UHGV virus genome: UHGV-0101498
Source of the DNA: a virus
Reading direction: 5' to 3' (one strand)
Length of the DNA stretch: 33,788 nucleotides
Positions 691 through 26,449 of the stretch are shown one piece after another. How positions within the stretch are numbered: position 1 is the stretch's first letter; each line of letters begins with the position of its first letter. The notes under the pieces are model-generated. The model did no database searches, was not told where the DNA came from, and worked only from the letters and a program-made list of their open reading frames with translations. Position numbers and translations under genes: made by a program.

Positions 691-1743
691 TTACGGGGTA
701 ATGCCAACCGCTGCCGCCACTTTGTCGCCACTTGGCAGCGTTGCCAGAGGATTGAAACGGAGCGCCGTTTCCAGATGATCCGGTGCCAGATGTGCGTAAC
801 GCATAGTCATTTTTATATCGTGGTGTCCGAGAATTTTTTGTAAGGCCAGAATGTTTCCACCCGACATCATGAAGTGCGCCGCAAACGTATGGCGCAGAAC
901 GTGTGTGAGTTGACCGCGAGGGAGCACGATAGACGTTTTTTCCATCACGGATAAAAATTGAAAATAGCAGTCTGTGAAGAAATTGAACCCATCAAGCGCC
1001 ATGATCTCTTCGTAAAGCTCTTTACTGATAGGGATGCTTCTGTTTTTCTTCCCCTTCGTTCTGACAAAGGTAATTCGGTATTTGGTCACCTGTGAGCGGG
1101 TAAGATTTACGGCTTCACGCCAGCGTGCGCCTGTGCTTAAGCATATCTTAACTACCAGTGCCAGAATTGGGTCCTGACGTTTGCAATCAGCCAGCAATTC
1201 AACAATCTGCTCATGGGTAAGCCATGCCATCTCTTTTTCTGCGATGGTGAATTTTCGCATGTTCTCCAGTGGGTTCGGATACGACCATTCGCCCAGACGG
1301 GATAGTTCGCTAAAAACACTACTTAGATAGCTTTGCTCCAGGTTAATGGTGACCGGGCTTGCTCCTTTCTTCCATTTCTCGCTGAAGTAGATCTCGCCTG
1401 TCAGGCGTTTATCTCGATAGTGGGCAAACATTTTAGAGGTGAGATCGGTTGCAAGAGGATTGCCCAGAGCGTCAACCATCAACAGCAATTTGTCATAGAC
1501 ATGCTGCCCAGCTGTCAGAGATTTACCATGTAGTTTGAACCATAGCTCAACCACGTCTTTCAGTGTTCGACGATCCACTGATTCACCCAGCCAGGGCTTT
1601 GCTTCGGTTTCTTCCATCGTGTGGCGCTCAAAAGCCAGTGCTTCGCCTTTGGTGACGAATTGTTTACGCACACGACGCCCACTTCGTCCGGCGGGGTAAC
1701 ATTCGCAAAGCCATTTCCCAGTGGTGAGTTTTCGTACTGCCAT
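691..1743 (-). CDS. int: Tyrosine integrase, P2 Int-like (351 aa)
   Basis: ORF 691..1899; internal ATG at 1743 preceded by GGAGGG; C-terminus carries the tyrosine-recombinase motifs (HVLRHTFAAH...LGHHDIKMTMRYAHL). Confidence 0.85.
   Translation of the reverse strand: MAVRKLTTGKWLCECYPAGRSGRRVRKQFVTKGEALAFERHTMEETEAKPWLGESVDRRTLKDVVELWFKLHGKSLTAGQHVYDKLLLMVDALGNPLATDLTSKMFAHYRDKRLTGEIYFSEKWKKGASPVTINLEQSYLSSVFSELSRLGEWSYPNPLENMRKFTIAEKEMAWLTHEQIVELLADCKRQDPILALVVKICLSTGARWREAVNLTRSQVTKYRITFVRTKGKKNRSIPISKELYEEIMALDGFNFFTDCYFQFLSVMEKTSIVLPRGQLTHVLRHTFAAHFMMSGGNILALQKILGHHDIKMTMRYAHLAPDHLETALRFNPLATLPSGDKVAAAVGITP
708..730. repeat. Putative attL core (overlaps the 3' end of int)
   Basis: 22/23 identity with 33738-33760 in otherwise unrelated sequence context. 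Confidence 0.5.
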
Positions 1744-1931
1744 AAAAAATGCCCTCCAGTAGAGAGCATTTTCACTGTATGTATAACCAGTGTCAATGTA
1801 TGAAATCCTACGACCATACATCTCACTGAAGCCATAATTAAGTTGGCTATTCTTTTTGCTATGTGAGCATGTAACTTTTGCGGTTAACCTGCGGCTCATT
1901 TTTATTTTAGACGCAGATATAAAAGCAAAAG

Positions 1932-2123
1932 TTATCGTGAGTTTTTAGTACAGATTTTTTTGGATTTACTAATAGTTCCATCATTGCAAACGAATTTGCC
2001 ATCTGAGGTACAGTGAGAAACACCTCCCTTTTTCCCTGAGCAGGGATAATTTCTAGCATAGGTAGTTAGTGGGTTTAATAACAAAGAACATGACAAAACC
2101 ACAAAAAATACCTTACCAAGCAT
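1932..2123 (-). CDS. Small secreted cysteine-rich protein (63 aa), predicted signal peptide; cargo gene between cI and int
   Basis: Strong RBS (GGGAGG, 6-nt spacer); hydrophobic N-terminus then a Cys/Lys-rich mature part; AT-rich relative to neighbours. Confidence 0.55.
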
Positions 2124-2138
2124 AGTTTCCTCCCGGTA

Positions 2139-2795
2139 CTATTTAACATACTTGACTGTTAAACTTATAATTTTACCAATTATTTCAATGTCTTCTATCT
2201 TGCATTCGAAGGCTCTGTTTCCACCCTCGACGAAGATTCTTCCACCGGGTAAACGAGTAATGTCACGGATCGTTATTTCGCCATCAATACTTATTACCCA
2301 TTTACCATCACGTATATCATCAAATTCTTTATCACAAATAAATTCAGAATTGTTATCTGTGATGACAAAAGGTTTTTTAAACGTAGAGGGTAGAAATCCC
2401 TTATCAAAAATATAAAAACCGTCTTTCTGCAATGCTCCATCAGACAATAAATATTTTTCTACTTCTATAGTATTTGTATTTGCTGATGCTTGCTTTGAAC
2501 CATGCCCTGTTGTTAGCCAATTAAGCGAGGTGCCCGTTTCAAGGGCGCACTGGATTACCCAATCTGCTGGAAAAATATCACGCATATAGCGCGTTGCCAT
2601 GGTGCTCTTAGAAACACCTAAATGATCACATAGAGCCTGACGGGTACCGAACCCATATGCTTCAACTAAACGTTCTATGGCTTTCTTACCGCCGCTATTG
2701 AAATCCACAAGTCCTCCAAAGAAATCCAAAATTCGTTGACAGATTCCAAAAGCGATCTTAAAGTTGAACCAGAAGTGTTCTTTTGGAGCCTTCAC
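2139..2795 (-). CDS. cI: Immunity repressor, phage 186 CI-like (HTH then C-terminal domain)
   Basis: Translation contains ERLVEAYGFGTRQALCDHLGVSKSTMATRYMRD...CALETGTSLNWLTTG, resembling 186 CI as recalled; GTG start at 2795; divergent from apl. Confidence 0.75.
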   Translation of the reverse strand: MKAPKEHFWFNFKIAFGICQRILDFFGGLVDFNSGGKKAIERLVEAYGFGTRQALCDHLGVSKSTMATRYMRDIFPADWVIQCALETGTSLNWLTTGHGSKQASANTNTIEVEKYLLSDGALQKDGFYIFDKGFLPSTFKKPFVITDNNSEFICDKEFDDIRDGKWVISIDGEITIRDITRLPGGRIFVEGGNRAFECKIEDIEIIGKIISLTVKYVK

Positions 2796-2853: not shown

Positions 2854-3057
2854 ATGACACCTAACATTTCAATTACTCTGAATACACCACATGTCACAAT
2901 CGAACGTTATAGCGAACTGACTGGCCTTTCTATTGATACGATTAACGACATGTTGGCTGATGGCCGACTACCTCGTCATCGTCTTCGTAAAGACAAAAAA
3001 CGTGAAAAGGTAATGATTAACCTGGCTGCTCTGACTGTTGATGCTTTGTCTGCTTAA
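2854..3057 (+). CDS. apl: Apl-like excisionase/repressor (Cox functional analogue), 67 aa
   Basis: First gene of the rightward early operon, divergent from cI; small HTH protein; RBS GGAA 9 nt upstream. Confidence 0.65.
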
Positions 3058-3121: not shown

Positions 3122-3631
3122 ATGTTTGATTACCAAGTTTCCAAACATCCACATTTTGATGAAGCCTGTCGTGCATTCGCACTGCGCCACAATCTGGTGC
3201 AACTGGCAGAACGTGCGGGCATGAATGTGCAGATTCTGCGGAACAAGCTGAACCCAGCTCAACCTCATTTATTAACCGCACCAGAAATCTGGCTGCTTAC
3301 CGATCTGACTGAAGATTCAACGTTGGTAGATGGTTTTCTGGCACAGATTCATTGTCTGCCATGTGTACCGATTAATGAGGTAGCAAAAGAGAAACTGCCG
3401 CATTACGTCATGAGCGCAACTGCAGAGATCGGGCGTGTTGCAGCAGGTGCGGTATCTGGTGATGTAAAAACTAGTGCCGGTCGTCGTGATGCTATCAGCA
3501 GCATTAACTCTGTAACACGACTGATGGCGCTGGCTGCTGTTTCATTGCAGGCCCGTTTACAGGCTAATCCTGCGATGGCGAGTGCAGTTGATACCGTGAC
3601 TGGCCTCGGTGCTTCATTCGGTTTGCTGTGA
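3122..3631 (+). CDS. cII: CII-like lysogeny-establishment activator (169 aa)
   Basis: [24 protein letters not shown]... with [25 protein letters not shown], strongly resembling 186 CII as recalled; GGAG 9 nt before the ATG at 3122 (ORF track starts at TTG 3113). Confidence 0.8.
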
Positions 3632-8279: not shown

Positions 8280-8299
8280 TACTGTAAATATAAACAGTG
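8280..8299. promoter_or_regulatory. LexA (SOS) box tACTGT-N8-ACAGtg upstream of the tum-like operon
   Basis: Seen directly: CTGT(8282-8285)-N8-ACAG(8294-8297), about 42 bp upstream of the ATG at 8341. Confidence 0.7.
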
Positions 8300-8340: not shown

Positions 8341-8529
8341 ATGCAGGACTATTTTTTGGAGTCTTTGAAGCTCCAGCGCATTGATTTTTTTCTTAAGCTT
8401 GTAGCGGCTAGCGAGTGTAGTGATGAAGAGAAGGGGCTGGCTCTGCAGTGGGTTTCTGAATTGACTGATGAACTCATGGCAAAAATCAGAACCCACGAAT
8501 ACAACCGCTCAATGGATGTCATCAGCTGA
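8341..8529 (+). CDS. Small protein (62 aa), candidate Tum-like antirepressor N-terminal module
   Basis: AGGAGG RBS; directly downstream of the LexA box and followed by a DinI-like ORF, matching the recalled layout of the 186 tum locus. Confidence 0.45.
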   Translation: MQDYFLESLKLQRIDFFLKLVAASECSDEEKGLALQWVSELTDELMAKIRTHEYNRSMDVIS

Positions 8530-8539
8530 GGTGACTTTT

Positions 8540-8773
8540 ATGCGCATTGAAATAATGATCGATAAAGAGCAGAAGATTAGCCAGTCTACCCTGGACGCCC
8601 TTGAATCCGAGCTTTACCGCAATCTGCGCCCCCTGTATCCCAAAACGGTAATTCGCATTCGCAAAGGTAGCTCTAACGGTGTGGAACTAACCGGACTGCA
8701 ACTGGACGAAGAAAGAAAACAAGTGATGAAAATTATGCAGAAGGTGTGGGAAGACGACAGCTGGCTGCATTAA
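8540..8773 (+). CDS. DinI-family protein (77 aa)
   Basis: MRIEIMIDK...LDALESELYRNL...VWEDDSWLH follows the DinI pattern (MRIE..IAK...DAL..EL...TWESADDWF); GAGGTG RBS. Confidence 0.7.
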   Translation: MRIEIMIDKEQKISQSTLDALESELYRNLRPLYPKTVIRIRKGSSNGVELTGLQLDEERKQVMKIMQKVWEDDSWLH

Positions 8774-8996: not shown

Positions 8997-9078
8997 CGCG
9001 CGCTTGCTCTTGAAATGAGAAAGTTAATTGGTTAACTTTTTAAGCAGGGTCAACGCACTGTTGAGCAAAGGAGTGAGT

Positions 9079-9726
9079 ATGATTAGTACAGGACATATTG
9101 TCGCTGTTGGCGCGGTTGATGCAGGCGAAGTAAAATTACTGGGTACCGGTTTTGTCATCTCTAATGACAAGATAATTACATCTCGGCATGTAATTCGTGG
9201 TTTTGCTTTTAATATAATAATTTCTCCTTCGGAGATTAATGATTTTAATCTTTATCAAGATACTACAATCAACAGAATTCAGTATTATTCTGTTGAGGTA
9301 ATTGATGAGGATCCAATCAGAGATCTTTGTGTTTTGAAATTTAAGGCAGGATCGTTTTCTGGGCCCAATATTATCCTCTCAAGCTTAGATAAAATATCTA
9401 TTGGTGAAGAAGTTGGTGTTTTGGGTTACCCTCATTGTAATGAGGGTAGAAAAGTACTTACATTCCAAACAGCAAGAGTCGGTGCTAAGGTTTTACTTTC
9501 GAGTAATAATGTAAAGTCTAAACATGCAGTTATAAATTTGCAATCAAGACCAGGTCAATCAGGTTCAGTTATTTTTAATTTAAAAAATAATGAGGTTGTC
9601 GGGGTGTTAGTTGGTGCTTATACAAATAATGCAGCGGGCTCTGTATTTATTGGAGGAATTAATCCTGCAGCTTTGCATCAAACTACTTATGCGATTTCAG
9701 CTGAATATATTAAGGATATGTTATGA
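9079..9726 (+). CDS. Trypsin-like (S1 family) serine protease, 215 aa, cytoplasmic (no signal peptide apparent)
   Basis: Catalytic triad candidates His37 (TSRHV), Asp82 (RDLCVLKF), Ser161 (GQSGS); AGGAG RBS 5 nt before ATG; AT-rich. The ORF track starts at TTG 9028. Confidence 0.75.
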   Translation: MISTGHIVAVGAVDAGEVKLLGTGFVISNDKIITSRHVIRGFAFNIIISPSEINDFNLYQDTTINRIQYYSVEVIDEDPIRDLCVLKFKAGSFSGPNIILSSLDKISIGEEVGVLGYPHCNEGRKVLTFQTARVGAKVLLSSNNVKSKHAVINLQSRPGQSGSVIFNLKNNEVVGVLVGAYTNNAAGSVFIGGINPAALHQTTYAISAEYIKDML

Positions 9727-10169
9727 TCTCTATACCAAATGAAGATGCTGAAGCTTGGCTATCTACCTTAAAAAAATATCAATCATCAACTATTAAATCC
9801 TTTCTCGAGCAAGGTACGGAAGAGCAAGCTCTTGAATCATGGTTAACAGCTTCAGGCCCAAGTTTAACATCTCCATTTGGAGGGGATGCTTCCAGCATGC
9901 CGGGTAAAAAGGCATTTGTTGATCAGTTTAAGCAAGAGTTTAGAGCTTTTGTTTGTGGAAGCGATAAATATGTCAAAGAGAGGAATGGATTGGGTGAGCT
10001 TGGCGGGGATATTAAAACCTATCTTGTCAGTGTTATTTCAAGTTCAATTGCTACCTCTTTAGGTACTACTACAGTATTTATTGCTCCCGCTGTTGTAATC
10101 ATGCTTATTACGATCTCAAAAATGGGTCTTAATGCGTGGTGTTCATTAGAAACCGTAAAAGACTCTTAA
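9723..10169 (+). CDS. Small protein (148 aa) with a soluble N-terminal region and a C-terminal hydrophobic membrane segment; partner of the protease
   Basis: Start overlaps the protease stop (ATGA); C-terminal stretch YLVSVISSSIATSLGTTTVFIAPAVVIMLITISKMGL is predicted transmembrane. Confidence 0.65.
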   Translation: MISIPNEDAEAWLSTLKKYQSSTIKSFLEQGTEEQALESWLTASGPSLTSPFGGDASSMPGKKAFVDQFKQEFRAFVCGSDKYVKERNGLGELGGDIKTYLVSVISSSIATSLGTTTVFIAPAVVIMLITISKMGLNAWCSLETVKDS

Positions 10170-23497: not shown

Positions 23498-23522
23498 AAA
23501 CGCCCCTTATGGGGCGTATTTT
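23498..23522. terminator. Bidirectional rho-independent terminator between G and the convergent acyltransferase gene
   Basis: AAACGCCCC-ttat-GGGGCGT followed by ATTTTG. Confidence 0.65.
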
Positions 23523-24676
23523 GCTGCTTGCACGTTATTCTTTGGAAGAATTTTATTTGATAAATAATTGGAAAATTTTATCGCGTTATCATCAATTAGC
23601 AATTTAAAAATTAAAGCTGCAAGTATTGAAGATAATAAAGTGATTGGGAAAGTAATAAGTAAAGACTTTCCGTATGAAACTCCTGCATCACCAAGCTTAA
23701 TTACGATCAAAGAAGATATTGAAGCTATTAATGGAAAATGCACCAGATAAAGAGAGTATGATACATCTCCAAGAAATTTACAGGTTTTTGTTTTGAATAA
23801 ATTTGAGATAACTATTGATTTATCAATTGCTATAATAAGAAACATTGAACCAAAGGCTTGAGAAACAATTCTCAAATCAAAGTAAGTTATGTCACTGTTA
23901 TTTATCCAGATACTATGTTCAGTTATAAAATATGGGTATGAACCTAGGTAACATCCTAGTAAAATAAACATAAAGATAATTGTGGTATTAATTTTCTTTA
24001 TATTAACTGAAACATCTGCACAAATCACCCCTAATATAAATCCTAATAGATGACTTGAGCTAAATACCACAATACCCAAAGTATAAAAAGCAAACCTAAT
24101 TCTGGTAGTGCAAACTAGTGGGACCAGAACGAGTACAAGAATTGAGCCAACCAATTCGGTGTGAATGGTCCATAATACTGGGTTTAATGTTTGAACTCCG
24201 TAAAAATATGTACCAATACCCCCTTCCCATACCGCATTCAGTAATGTCATTGTAGTTGGCATCGCTGGGATTACTTGTGATAAAGAGTACACTGCAGTTT
24301 CTGATGAATGAAATCCAATCGTTGTCATCAGAATAAAGGAAAATATAGTAGATGCAATGGTAGGTATTGCAAGACGTGGGTATCTCTTGATAATGGATTT
24401 AGAGTACCATTCTAGCCCCTTCCCTTTGAAAAAGGGAATCGATAGAACCATTCCACTCAAAACGAAGAAAAGCATTACGGCAAAGTGACCATTATATAAT
24501 ATATTAAATGGAGTTTCACTTATGTATTTCTCTCCATAATGATCTATCTGATTTTGAACAAAAACAGATGGTAGAAAGAATTGCATGAAATGGCTTATTA
24601 AAACTATCAAGCAAGCTATACCACGAATACCATCCAGTGCGTGATCTCGGGAAGGCGTCGTTAATTGTTGAACCAT
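23507..24676 (-). CDS. Integral-membrane acyltransferase (acyltransferase-3/OafA-like); candidate O-antigen or surface-polysaccharide acetyltransferase
   Basis: About 390 aa with about 10 predicted transmembrane helices; N-terminal LDGIRGIA...LISHF motif; AT-rich. Alternative start at 24691. Confidence 0.75.
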   Translation of the reverse strand: MVQQLTTPSRDHALDGIRGIACLIVLISHFMQFFLPSVFVQNQIDHYGEKYISETPFNILYNGHFAVMLFFVLSGMVLSIPFFKGKGLEWYSKSIIKRYPRLAIPTIASTIFSFILMTTIGFHSSETAVYSLSQVIPAMPTTMTLLNAVWEGGIGTYFYGVQTLNPVLWTIHTELVGSILVLVLVPLVCTTRIRFAFYTLGIVVFSSSHLLGFILGVICADVSVNIKKINTTIIFMFILLGCYLGSYPYFITEHSIWINNSDITYFDLRIVSQAFGSMFLIIAIDKSIVISNLFKTKTCKFLGDVSYSLYLVHFPLIASISSLIVIKLGDAGVSYGKSLLITFPITLLSSILAALIFKLLIDDNAIKFSNYLSNKILPKNNVQAAKYAP

Positions 24677-24918
24677 CAATTCCTCACACATTGTAATAAA
24701 GTATTAAAATAAAATAGTAAAAGCAGAATATACAAATACGAAAAGCGGAATTATACTTTACAAGAGTGCTTGATGCTATTGTTTTGTCGAGATTTATAAT
24801 CTGATCTTCTGTAGATGTTGTCCTGGCATTGTCCAATCATGATCTATGGGCTGGCTGGCGAACTTTCGATAGTGCGAGTATTGAATGATTTCCAGCCGTT
24901 ACCGATTTTACGTGTTAA

Positions 24919-25167
24919 TTAGTGAACAAACCACTCGTCAGCAGATTCCCAGGTATCTTTCAGAGTCTCCTGAACAAAAGTTTTTGCAGAATCCTTATCT
25001 GCGGTGCGTGTAACAGAAAGGCCATCGTTGCTGGTGGCTTTTACGATCACCTCTACATCGTCATAACGTTTACTGATGCGTCGGGTTAATTCTTCCTTTA
25101 ACGCATCCACAGCACCGGTTGGCATTTTAGTCATTTTTTCTTTGGCTATGCAGATTTCAATACGCAT
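24919..25167 (-). CDS. DinI-family protein (82 aa)
   Basis: [31 protein letters not shown]...[11 protein letters not shown], strongly DinI-like; GAGGGA RBS. Confidence 0.8.
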
Positions 25168-25180
25168 AAAAGTCCCTCTA

Positions 25181-25200
25181 TACTGTGTTTGTATACAGTA
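25181..25200. promoter_or_regulatory. LexA box TACTGTGTTTGTATACAGTA (near-perfect palindrome) upstream of the DinI-like gene
   Basis: CTGT-N8-ACAG seen directly, 14 bp upstream of the start codon. Confidence 0.75.
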
Positions 25201-25208
25201 TTATTTTT

Positions 25209-25228
25209 AACTGTATGGATAAACAGTG
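25209..25228. promoter_or_regulatory. Second LexA box aACTGTatggataaACAGtg
   Basis: CTGT-N8-ACAG, 8 bp from the first box; abuts the stop of the tyrosine recombinase gene. Confidence 0.6.
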
Positions 25229-25855
25229 TCAAGAGGTCTTATTTCTGCTCCTTTGGAGCTCTTCAAAACGATTATGTAAAGATTTCGGATACAGTTCGGT
25301 ATATACCTGCCATAGCACGTTTAATGAACGATGCCCTGTAACCTGGGCGACTTCCTCAATACTAAAACCAGCCTCAAATAAGCGACTTGCCCCTTCTCTA
25401 CGCAAATCATGGTATCGCAGATCTTTAATACCTAATTTGCTTCTTACCCTCTGGAATCCCGCAGTAACAGAAGTGCTGTTATATGGAAAAATGAATTCTG
25501 ATTTTTTGGGTTGTCGTTGGACGATATCCCAGGCTTCCCCAAGCAAGGCTACTTTCATATGGTTGCCTTCCTTTTTACGTGGATCTTTCCTGTCTCTTAC
25601 GAGTATGGATTTTTGTTCCTGATCGAGATCCTCCCATCGTAATCGGCATACTTCACCGATTCGCATACATGACCACACAGAAAATTTGAGGATATCAACG
25701 AACGGAATTTTTGAGCATTTATGTGTAGATCGTTGTTGAAGACCTTCAATGAGCATGTCCAGTTCATCAGATGCCGGTCTACGATTACGACGATTTGATT
25801 TACCAATTAAACCAACGTTTAAGAAAATGCAGAGGTAACAGCTAACTGGCATCAT
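25229..25855 (-). CDS. Short tyrosine recombinase (catalytic domain only, about 208 aa): FimB/FimE-like switch recombinase or 5'-truncated integrase
   Basis: R (RIGEVCRLR), HxxR (YHDLRREG) and H...Y (GHRSLNVLWQVYTELY) motifs present; no N-terminal core-binding domain; no good RBS. Confidence 0.55.
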   Translation of the reverse strand: MMPVSCYLCIFLNVGLIGKSNRRNRRPASDELDMLIEGLQQRSTHKCSKIPFVDILKFSVWSCMRIGEVCRLRWEDLDQEQKSILVRDRKDPRKKEGNHMKVALLGEAWDIVQRQPKKSEFIFPYNSTSVTAGFQRVRSKLGIKDLRYHDLRREGASRLFEAGFSIEEVAQVTGHRSLNVLWQVYTELYPKSLHNRFEELQRSRNKTS

Positions 25856-25882
25856 CTCCGGTTTTTATTCAGGGGGATGATC

Positions 25883-26449
25883 ATGCTTATTGGCTATGTA
25901 CGCGTGTCAACAAATGACCAGAACACCGATTTGCAACGTAATGCACTGAACTGCGCGGGATGTGAGCGGATTTTTGAGGACAAAATCAGTGGCACTAAGT
26001 CCGACAGACCGGGGCTGAAAAAACTACTCAGGACACTATCGGCAGGAGACACGCTGGTTGTCTGGAAGCTGGACATGTTGGGGCGCAGTATGCGGCATCT
26101 TGTTACGCTGATAGAAGAGTTGCGCCAGCGTGGTGTGAATTTCAGAAGCCTGACTGACAGTATTGATACCAGTACCCCAATGGGCCGTTTCTTTTTTCAT
26201 GTCATGGGTGCCCTGGCTGAAATGGAACGCGAACTGATAGTTGAACGTACCAGGGCAGGGCTGGCTGCAGCTCGTGCCAAAGGCAGAGTAGGTGGACGCC
26301 GTCCTAAGTTGACCACCGAACAGTGGGCACAGATTGGGCGTTTACTCGAGGCCGGAGAATCAATACAGCGTATTGCACTGATTTTTGATGTAGGCGTTTC
26401 TACCATTTATAGAAAATTTCCGGCAAATAAGATCAATGAATCCCCCTGA
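25883..26449 (+). CDS. Serine recombinase, DNA invertase of the Hin/Gin/Pin family (188 aa)
   Basis: MLIGYVRVSTNDQNTDLQRNAL...SLTDSIDTSTPMGRFFFHVMGALAEMERELIVERT with a C-terminal HTH, nearly co-linear with Hin/Gin as recalled; GGGGG RBS 6 nt before the ATG. Confidence 0.85.
   Translation: MLIGYVRVSTNDQNTDLQRNALNCAGCERIFEDKISGTKSDRPGLKKLLRTLSAGDTLVVWKLDMLGRSMRHLVTLIEELRQRGVNFRSLTDSIDTSTPMGRFFFHVMGALAEMERELIVERTRAGLAAARAKGRVGGRRPKLTTEQWAQIGRLLEAGESIQRIALIFDVGVSTIYRKFPANKINESP

Follow-up and report, generated by a model that had tools for sequence, protein, structure and literature searches.

A ydcA family gene behind the repressor of a 186-like Escherichia coli prophage encodes a candidate periplasmic binding module

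Introduction

The gene considered here is a ydcA family coding sequence on the minus strand at positions 1932-2123 of the virus genome UHGV-0101498, a 33,788-nucleotide (nt) stretch of DNA (the window) that is an Escherichia coli chromosomal segment starting in rcdA (ybjK) and continuing into a 186/P2-like prophage. Two described proteins serve as its closest points of reference. The first is the chromosomal YdcA of E. coli K-12 (b1419, 57 amino acids (aa)), a predicted periplasmic protein of unknown function (PMC11340327); E. coli W became sensitive to 300 mM 3-hydroxypropionate once ydcA was deleted, in a study that also cites acid-induced, YdcI-dependent ydcA expression (PMC7642389). This sensitivity is the only phenotype found in the literature for a family that has no established function, and other ydcA literature yielded just a transcriptome listing and a deletion spanning the locus. 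The ydcA genes of Bacillus subtilis (a rhomboid protease paralogue), of the gonococcal genetic island and of F-type plasmids appear to be unrelated namesakes.

The second is Dis2 (Lpg0823; chain 7muc_AN), a component of the Legionella Dot/Icm system and the only YdcA relative with a solved structure. Dis2 has two lobes and five disulfides. It is found beside the outer membrane in contact with DotK, DotC and DotD, which are lipoproteins; the Dot/Icm machine assembles without it, and it has been described as Legionella-specific and without structural relatives (PMC8486379, PMC12716638).

The described counterpart of the regulatory setting is the lysogenic operon of phage 186 (pL/pE-cI-int-orf69; NC_001317), in which cI abuts int. 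Small exported phage exclusion proteins are represented by Sp (spackle) of T4 and Sim of P1 and by the outer-membrane lipoproteins Cor (phi80/N15) and Llp (T5), all of them phage-encoded, small, exported to the envelope and made during phage residence, with an action no later than the entry of DNA. Neither in sequence nor in fold was any similarity between these proteins and YdcA found, and we know of no exclusion phenotype for any YdcA protein. A functional precedent of another kind is HxsA of the HXS system, a periplasmic effector proposed to engage incoming phage DNA electrostatically and to arrest its entry (PMC13128918).

The window gene is a genuine, strongly conserved gene under intense purifying selection. 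Our reading, to which we assign a rough probability of 0.55, is that its product is a Sec-exported, disulfide-locked, basic binding module, made continuously in lysogens via the repressor message, which acts on the periplasmic side of the outer membrane and gives the lysogen an accessory trait of its envelope.

Results

The window protein is a member of the YdcA family

The 63-aa window protein matched NCBIfam NF007463 (PRK10040.1-2) over residues 5-63 with 115.8 bits against a cutoff of 93 (E-value 5.3e-34), and phrog_6000 (PHROG 6000) with an E-value of 1.9e-34. The identical protein and its homologues carry the precomputed Pfam assignment PF27300 (‘YdcA’), and the RefSeq/PGAP name for the exact sequence is ‘YdcA family protein’ (WP_000900883.1). 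The protein that the initial annotation had left unrecognised is a full-score YdcA family member, and its exact sequence is already catalogued. A local Pfam-A scan of the window protein returned nothing significant (one chance match of 13 bits); the PF27300 model is newer than the Pfam copy used and is absent from it. The family motif PCSGxKGG...C...F[VI]CxDG..S.SK..C is present with all 16 invariant columns, including C28, C38, C46 and C58; the invariant family residues in window numbering are P27, C28, S29, K32, G33, G34, C38, F44, C46, D48, G49, S52, S54, K55 and C58.

Prophage YdcA and K-12 YdcA are of comparable size, share the plan of a signal peptide followed by a core of ~35-40 aa with four matching cysteines, and are identical at 25 of 32 core residues (78%). 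They differ in subfamily, the prophage protein belonging to NF007463 and reaching only 68.5 bits (cutoff 118) with the chromosomal equivalog NF007462, and in setting, the prophage gene lying behind a phage repressor and the chromosomal K-12 gene beside rydC/cybB. At an E-value ≤ 0.001 the family comprised 456 clusters at 50% identity among 1.84 billion representatives, and 229 YdcA loci were collected from species-level genomes of gamma-, beta- and alphaproteobacteria.

Several other candidate assignments were discarded. The match to the NCBIfam ‘lpg1681 family’ was not significant (E-value 0.11), and sub-threshold matches to several chains of Pin-II proteinase inhibitors (E-values 0.12-1.8) were regarded as cysteine-spacing noise, the window protein having four cysteines, not eight. 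The UniRef label ‘Conjugal transfer protein’, attached to the exact protein, is unverified, and the gene context in the window offers no support for it.

Predicted export signal and mature domain

From the open reading frame (ORF) list and its translation, the coding sequence (1932..2123, minus strand; TAA stop at 1934-1932) encodes 63 aa including the signal peptide, and its ATG lies 15 nt downstream of the cI stop codon TAG (2141-2139). Within this gap, 5 nt upstream of the ATG, sequence reading identified the Shine-Dalgarno element GGGAGG (2129..2134, minus strand), so that the very strong ribosome-binding site reported in the initial annotation is confirmed. The AT-rich location between cI and int reported there is likewise borne out by a GC content of 35% in the ydcA ORF, 38% in cI and 37% in the spacer between ydcA and int, against 51% in the whole window; the low GC of ydcA fits a foreign origin.

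Hydropathy and the family alignment place a predicted Sec signal peptide at codons 1-23 (2055..2123, minus strand), which opens with charged residues, continues in a hydrophobic core (Kyte-Doolittle 2.2-2.7) and would be cut after T-Y-A. The mature YdcA domain (codons 24-63; 1935..2054, minus strand) has 40 aa with 4 Cys and 7 Lys, an isoelectric point of 9.7 and a net charge of ~+7, which agrees with the signal-peptide-like start and the Cys/Lys-rich mature part of about 40 aa noticed at first. Across a 27-sequence family alignment the predicted -1 residue, Ala23, is invariant and the remaining leader is freely variable; leader identity to the window copy is merely 19-35% in the copies of E. 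coli L008 and of Haemophilus phage HP2. Given this contrast in conservation between leader and core, together with the invariant Ala23, the pattern fits the usual signature of a cleaved signal peptide, and cleavage by signal peptidase I after Ala23 is predicted. We infer export and disulfide formation of the prophage protein.

A lipoprotein reading was dropped, because the prophage YdcA leader has no lipobox ([LVI][ASTVI][GAS]C) at the signal-peptide end, in which the protein differs from Cor and Llp. The sole leader Cys (residue 12, in V-L-S-C) has Leu at -2 and a very short segment before it, and is not conserved in the family.

The product, small, cationic, disulfide-stabilised and defensin-like, could also be set free by lysis or secretion to act on other cells, be it as an antimicrobial, as a membrane-active peptide or as a virulence factor; a membrane-active or virulence peptide was among the candidates of the initial annotation. 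We regard a released peptide as very improbable: a Gram-negative Sec signal alone reaches only the periplasm, no immunity, export or maturation genes are adjacent, the mature part contains no amphipathic or hydrophobic segment, the chromosomal copies of the family have housekeeping neighbours, and other members form fusions with nucleases.

The gene is under purifying selection

The BL21(DE3) copy differs from the window copy in 12 codons, 11 of them synonymous and one an Arg-to-Lys change. Over the 32-codon core, synonymous and non-synonymous differences from the window copy stood at 20:1 in L008 and 19:1 in Enterobacter L012, which are prophages of other immunity types than the window prophage, and at 14:6 in HP2. 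The YdcA core was 97-100% identical between prophages whose cI proteins share 45-85% identity, and the HP2 core was 81% identical to the window copy at a cI identity of 38%. The identical protein occurs on at least 1000 public contigs. The ydcA ORF was present in 648 of 5426 complete E. coli genomes (~12%), BL21(DE3) among them, and accompanied this cI lineage in ~628 of 657 genomes, intact in ~628.

Close relatives in which the gene is absent or disrupted do occur alongside this retention. In E. coli Sx181-0-1 (L185), which carries the same prophage lineage, a second CI-like gene and a KAP NTPase gene stand in place of ydcA, and in E. coli DETEC-P829 (L186) ydcA has lost 1 nt from a T-run within its signal-peptide codons and is cut short at 50 aa.

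A spurious or decaying ORF without function might be suspected from the frameshift in one strain and from the location in AT-rich, horizontally acquired DNA. The selection pattern excludes it in our judgement, leaving a chance close to nil: at saturating divergence there are ~20 synonymous changes for every non-synonymous one, ~628 genomes keep an intact ORF, a strong ribosome-binding site is present, and the family is present across alpha-, beta- and gammaproteobacteria.

Structural relationship to Dis2

The AlphaFold2 model of the 40 mature residues (mean predicted local distance difference test score 80.7) shows a small beta-hairpin. The best match in the Protein Data Bank (PDB) by sequence was 7muc_AN (phmmer E-value 3e-5; family profile 1.6e-5), with the signal peptide and all four Cys aligned, and the same chain was the top Foldseek match (TM-score 0.62, 36% identity, E-value 0.49). 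Homology of prophage YdcA to one Dis2 lobe is supported, and each Dis2 lobe aligns with the Proteobacteria-wide YdcA family. The link between Dis2 and YdcA appears to be previously unreported, since the Dis2 papers describe Dis2 as specific to Legionella and without homologues.

Dis2 is periplasmic, disulfide-locked and non-enzymatic and has a position near the outer membrane (PMC8486379), a character that is predicted for prophage YdcA as well. They differ in that Dis2 has two lobes with five disulfides and lacks a basic SKSKK tail, whereas prophage YdcA is a single lobe with four Cys and has this tail, and in that Dis2 is a chromosomal, stoichiometric part of a secretion machine whereas prophage YdcA is phage-borne. 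On our analysis, the YdcA fold in its sole observed case is a periplasmic, outer-membrane-proximal, non-catalytic docking module.

The comparison raises the possibility that YdcA is an accessory of an outer-membrane machine, docking in the manner of Dis2 on lipoproteins of a secretion, pilus or conjugation apparatus and modulating that apparatus, for example through the masking of a phage receptor. In its favour, the only solved relative is a stoichiometric subunit of the outer-membrane cap that contacts DotK, DotC and DotD, the unverified UniRef name mentions conjugal transfer, and one small plasmid has the gene beside a traD-like gene. We nevertheless consider it improbable, given the single domain in place of two lobes and the SKSKK tail that Dis2 lacks. 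E. coli has no Dot/Icm system, no secretion-system genes lay nearby in any locus inspected, and none were called in the parts of the window examined, where the genes are P2/186-type phage genes.

Domain fusions

The fusion survey covered roughly 22 YdcA family representatives longer than 140 aa. In these long proteins a signal peptide and a low-complexity linker precede the YdcA module, which is followed by a C-terminal partner domain (fusion and tandem proteins P0118, P0164, P0185, P0195, P0174, P0112 and P0079-P0081, all family representatives outside the window). The partners were a staphylococcal-type nuclease (SNase), Endonuclease_NS (three cases), a Nuc-type PLD nuclease (best PDB match 1BYR, E-value 4e-19), a VasL C-terminal domain, a basic CTGPRGG (PBCV-basic-adaptor-like) tail, and one or two further YdcA copies. 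Because one small module is found on three unrelated nuclease folds, the fusions argue for a role of the module in substrate binding or localisation, rather than in catalysis or specific inhibition.

ydcA is a fixed partner of cI within a variable slot

The 186-type repressor gene cI (2139..2708, minus strand; Pfam PF07022 and PF16452; ‘phage repressor protein CI’ by PGAP in K99B) and the tyrosine integrase gene int (691..1743, minus strand; Pfam PF24624 and PF00589; PGAP), which marks the prophage end beside rcdA, flank ydcA, giving a leftward minus-strand order of cI, ydcA, a 188-nt spacer and int. Rightward from the switch follow an apl/cox-like gene, cII, fil, a DUF5347 gene, a DUF2732 gene, a TraR/DksA-like gene, dam and a replication gene. 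In phage 186 and Salmonella phage RE-2010, cI abuts int with no ydcA and nothing in between. Elsewhere the slot between cI and int holds other cargo, namely a 349-aa protein of unknown function in Klebsiella phage 4LV2017 and PD-Lambda-1 in vB_EcoM-813R9, and in E. coli L008 the order is cI-YdcA-PDC-S20(KAP NTPase)-int. A 2026 survey described the interval from integrase to primase as a minor defence hotspot of P2-like phages and did not mention YdcA (PMC13586616).

The order cI-YdcA-int recurs in Enterobacter (L012-15) and in three Yersinia species-level loci. In the HP2/S2 reference genomes an unannotated 60-aa YdcA ORF (L003 2920-3102, corresponding to NC_003315.1 ~2486-2668, minus strand) begins within the cI stop codon (TAATG) and is followed by orf1(S), which encodes a secreted PF12869 (OB-fold-like) protein, and then by int; a like arrangement is repeated in 16 HP2-like IMG/VR contigs, with the end of cI 3 nt before YdcA. 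The conservation at this position in related prophages that the initial annotation had proposed to check thus extends as far as Haemophilus, and within the variable slot ydcA behaves as a fixed partner of cI, in a tight and ancient linkage across Peduoviridae. The term ‘inserted’ used for the gene at first holds in so far as the slot is empty in 186 and RE-2010 and carries other cargo in relatives; the gene is not sporadic cargo, given its presence in ~628 of 657 genomes with this cI lineage.

Outside this setting, YdcA relatives were found on ~500 IMG/VR contigs, where a scan with the window-type query gave near-identical copies only and a Haemophilus-type query was used to sample diversity. 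They occur in temperate phages of Moraxella, Acinetobacter, Haemophilus and Pseudomonas, and other sites include housekeeping neighbourhoods, siphovirus tail modules, 3.9-kb MOBQ plasmids and the phage-like plasmid p3ABAYE. In Moraxella phage Mcat17 (L004) the YdcA gene lies within the tail module, after a tail-chaperone gene (Pfam), and in three IMG/VR contigs (L167, L172 and L177) it adjoins ORFs of 880-1017 aa, assumed from their size to be tape-measure genes. The siphovirus tail module is a known moron site, unlike the lysogeny-module context in Peduoviridae.

Possible roles in exclusion of incoming DNA or in support of the envelope

Two functional readings bear on this distribution, and we rank them about equal. 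In the first, superinfection exclusion, which the initial annotation had put forward as a candidate, the cationic protein would sit between the two membranes and stop the passage of DNA arriving from a phage, from a plasmid or by transformation, either by binding this DNA or by binding the apparatus through which it enters. It would be made together with the repressor, and its slot, part of the published minor P2 defence hotspot (PMC13586616), holds validated or candidate defence genes in relatives that do match PADLOC (PDC-S20, E-value 1e-171; PD-Lambda-1, E-value 3e-120). The family is common on mobile elements (the ~500 IMG/VR contigs, temperate phages, MOBQ plasmids and the phage-like plasmid), three nuclease folds with extracytoplasmic DNA as their substrate carry the domain as a fusion, and the mature charge is +7. 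A precedent exists in HxsA, a periplasmic effector that arrests phage DNA entry, probably by electrostatic means; HxsA is otherwise unlike YdcA, being unrelated in sequence, much larger, matured by radical-SAM enzymes, equipped with a peptidoglycan-binding domain, part of a four-gene system and not phage cargo (PMC13128918). Set against exclusion are the lack of a PADLOC match for YdcA itself, a core that hardly varies between hosts or between phages, a pattern seldom expected of an arms-race protein, and the ordinary chromosomal contexts of most members. K-12, moreover, is broadly phage-sensitive despite its close paralogue. We hold this reading only tentatively.

In the second, the prophage gene would supply an extra dose or a variant of host YdcA and thereby improve tolerance of acid, organic acids or other envelope stress. 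The 3-hydroxypropionate sensitivity of the E. coli W deletion and the cited acid-induced, YdcI-dependent expression (PMC7642389) point in this direction, as does the up-regulation of ydcA at stationary-phase entry in a persister transcriptome. The prophage core is 78% identical to K-12 YdcA, most family members are chromosomal, and the extreme conservation fits a conserved host target. The phenotype comes, however, from one study and concerns the paralogue rather than the prophage gene; the nuclease fusions and the enrichment on small plasmids and phages are left unexplained, and it would be odd for a phage to retain a host-redundant gene under selection of this strength unless dose or timing matters. 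Envelope support is thus an equally tentative proposal, one that we would not expect to hold in most outcomes.

A probable bicistronic cI-ydcA message with int set apart

A promoter scan found no promoter-like site on the minus strand between cI and ydcA. From this, the 15-nt spacing and the ribosome-binding site, ydcA reads as the second cistron of a leftward repressor message, probably co-transcribed with cI. A pR-like promoter found by the same scan (TTGACA-17-TAAAGT; 2736..2764, plus strand), which faces the apl/cox-like gene (2854-3057) and cII (3122-3631), marks the switch region where the leftward lysogenic transcript must start, and the switch layout matches the annotated switch of phage 186. 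A near-consensus sigma-70 site (TTAACA-17-TATAAT, 11/12; 2143-2171, plus strand) lies at the junction of ydcA and cI, antisense into cI, and may be a chance occurrence in AT-rich DNA or an antisense promoter.

The 80 nt upstream of int are conserved irrespective of the preceding cargo, as a comparison of the spacer with relatives revealed. They include an int promoter-like site (TTGACA-17-GAAAAT; 1768..1796, minus strand; -35-like element 1796-1791, -10-like element 1773-1768; promoter scan), whose spacer is formed by a LexA-box-like palindrome, ACTG-N10-CAGT (1774-1791, minus strand). A 13-bp hairpin followed by U6 (1745..1773, minus strand; RNA fold -14.9 kcal/mol, z -6.8) ends at the int ATG and holds the int Shine-Dalgarno sequence GGAGGG (1757-1752) in its 3' arm. 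This hairpin emerged from RNA folding, the terminator scan having flagged nothing on the minus strand between ydcA and int. Its structure is kept with differing stem sequences (compensatory changes) in L008, L007, L005 and the Yersinia loci.

The window has five copies of the palindrome ACTG-N10-CAGT, where chance alone would give 0.37. Three of the four other copies (a single one at 8281-8298, and a tandem pair at 25182-25199 and 25210-25227) directly precede DinI-like genes, the corresponding ORFs lying at 8468-8773 (plus strand), after the 8281 box, and at 24919-25167 (minus strand), after the tandem pair. DinI-like genes are a classic SOS target. On the strength of this excess and of the position before DinI-like genes, the palindrome appears to behave as a LexA box in the window prophage, which appears to carry several SOS-regulated units. 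The arrangement upstream of int suggests that int is under SOS control and insulated from the cI transcript, and the 1745-1773 hairpin is a probable 3' boundary or attenuator of the cI-ydcA transcript. Read-through cI-ydcA RNA would fold the hairpin, so that transcription would terminate or the int ribosome-binding site would be hidden; RNA from the SOS-controlled promoter would start inside the 5' stem arm and permit translation of int. The maintenance message is more likely to be cI-ydcA, with int not included.

The window prophage and phage 186 have a common switch (186-type cI, apl/cox-like gene, cII, fil and face-to-face promoters). They differ in that cI abuts int in 186, whereas the window prophage has ydcA and a 188-nt spacer in between, and its int is preceded by a LexA-box promoter of its own and by a hairpin in which the int ribosome-binding site is concealed. 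The cI-int operon of the initial annotation is accordingly a probable misassignment for this prophage. Its further proposal, expression of ydcA from the repressor transcript, is the natural expectation from position and ribosome-binding site and gains strength from this reading, with int probably outside the unit. Nor is ydcA a moron in the classical sense: it has no promoter or terminator of its own, and the nearest hairpin and U-run lies 160 nt downstream, as part of the conserved int leader.

Other features of the window

An AT-rich (32-40% GC) two-gene cassette at 9028-10169 (plus strand), in the interval between the replication gene and the portal gene that is the classic P2 old/tin hotspot, matches the candidate defence system PDC-M35 of PADLOC, encoding a trypsin-like protease (E-value 1.5e-91) and a partner (E-value 6e-57). 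After the tail-fibre and assembly genes, a 394-aa membrane acyltransferase of the Acyl_transf_3 type is encoded at 23507-24691 (minus strand), which is likely to be a lysogenic-conversion gene that modifies a surface polysaccharide. At 25229-26449, a 208-aa tyrosine-recombinase-like ORF (minus strand) adjoins a Hin/Gin-type serine invertase (190 aa, plus strand); the pair may be a DNA-inversion module or its remnant.

Discussion

The proposed course of events in a lysogen is as follows. YdcA, encoded by the second cistron of the repressor message, would be made in every lysogen at all times, probably without any dependence on int. The pre-protein would be exported by Sec and cut by signal peptidase I after Ala23, and the mature product would be oxidised in the periplasm to a strongly basic mini-domain of 4.3 kDa with two disulfides. 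There it would act as a non-enzymatic binding module on the periplasmic side of the outer membrane, docking either on an outer-membrane-associated partner, as Dis2 does on Dot/Icm lipoproteins, or on a polyanion, for instance DNA or a polymer of the envelope, the option suggested by the nuclease fusions and the charge. The lysogen would thereby gain an accessory trait at the level of the envelope. The analysis shows the reading frame, the selection acting on it, the family assignment, the recurrent synteny with cI and the resemblance to Dis2, while export, disulfide formation, co-transcription with cI and the binding role are the inferred elements of this scheme; as to the trait, blocking foreign DNA or phage and tolerating envelope or acid stress remain about equally ranked, each as a minority prospect.

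Several observations weigh against this proposal. Most YdcA members, 70 of 80 species-level loci, are not beside a 186-type cI or int (a cI or int of this type was nearby in only ~10 of these 80 loci and in 20 of 80 diverse viral ones), so that the function may belong to the cell in general, with the phage gene as a mere duplicate; E. coli already has a chromosomal ydcA. The nuclease fusions could reflect a localisation or pro-domain role instead of ligand binding. PADLOC-DB 2.0 gave 0 families at an E-value ≤ 0.01 for prophage YdcA, and the literature held nothing usable on expression, localisation or phenotype of prophage ydcA, lysogens included. Finally, deletion of dis2 in Legionella has only subtle effects (PMC12716638), so that little can be learnt about function from the sole characterised relative.

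The gene, the family and the exact sequence were already catalogued, and a cargo gene in a lysogeny module is ordinary. The interest lies in a strongly selected gene that roughly every eighth complete E. coli genome carries, the workhorse BL21(DE3) among them, and that is tied to the immunity gene of prophages in hosts as far apart as Escherichia and Haemophilus, in a family of which no member has a known function. The leads gained are a named family, a solved relative in Dis2, recurrent fusions to secreted nucleases and a simple two-gene unit.

A bolder and rather doubtful extension is that YdcA mini-proteins form a widespread, so far unrecognised class of periplasmic gatekeepers, 4-kDa, disulfide-locked, cationic modules that bind DNA or the DNA-entry apparatus between the membranes. 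If true, this would account for the recruitment of the module by three unrelated secreted nuclease folds, for the tandem version in a secretion machine derived from DNA transfer and for the stand-alone copies on prophages and small plasmids. In 186-like phages YdcA would then be hard-wired behind the repressor as a barrier to incoming phage or foreign DNA. Should neither the block of DNA entry nor the hardening of the envelope be true, YdcA stays one more conserved hypothetical cargo gene; if either is, it would explain a very common lysogenic-conversion gene and give the chromosomal ydcA a function.

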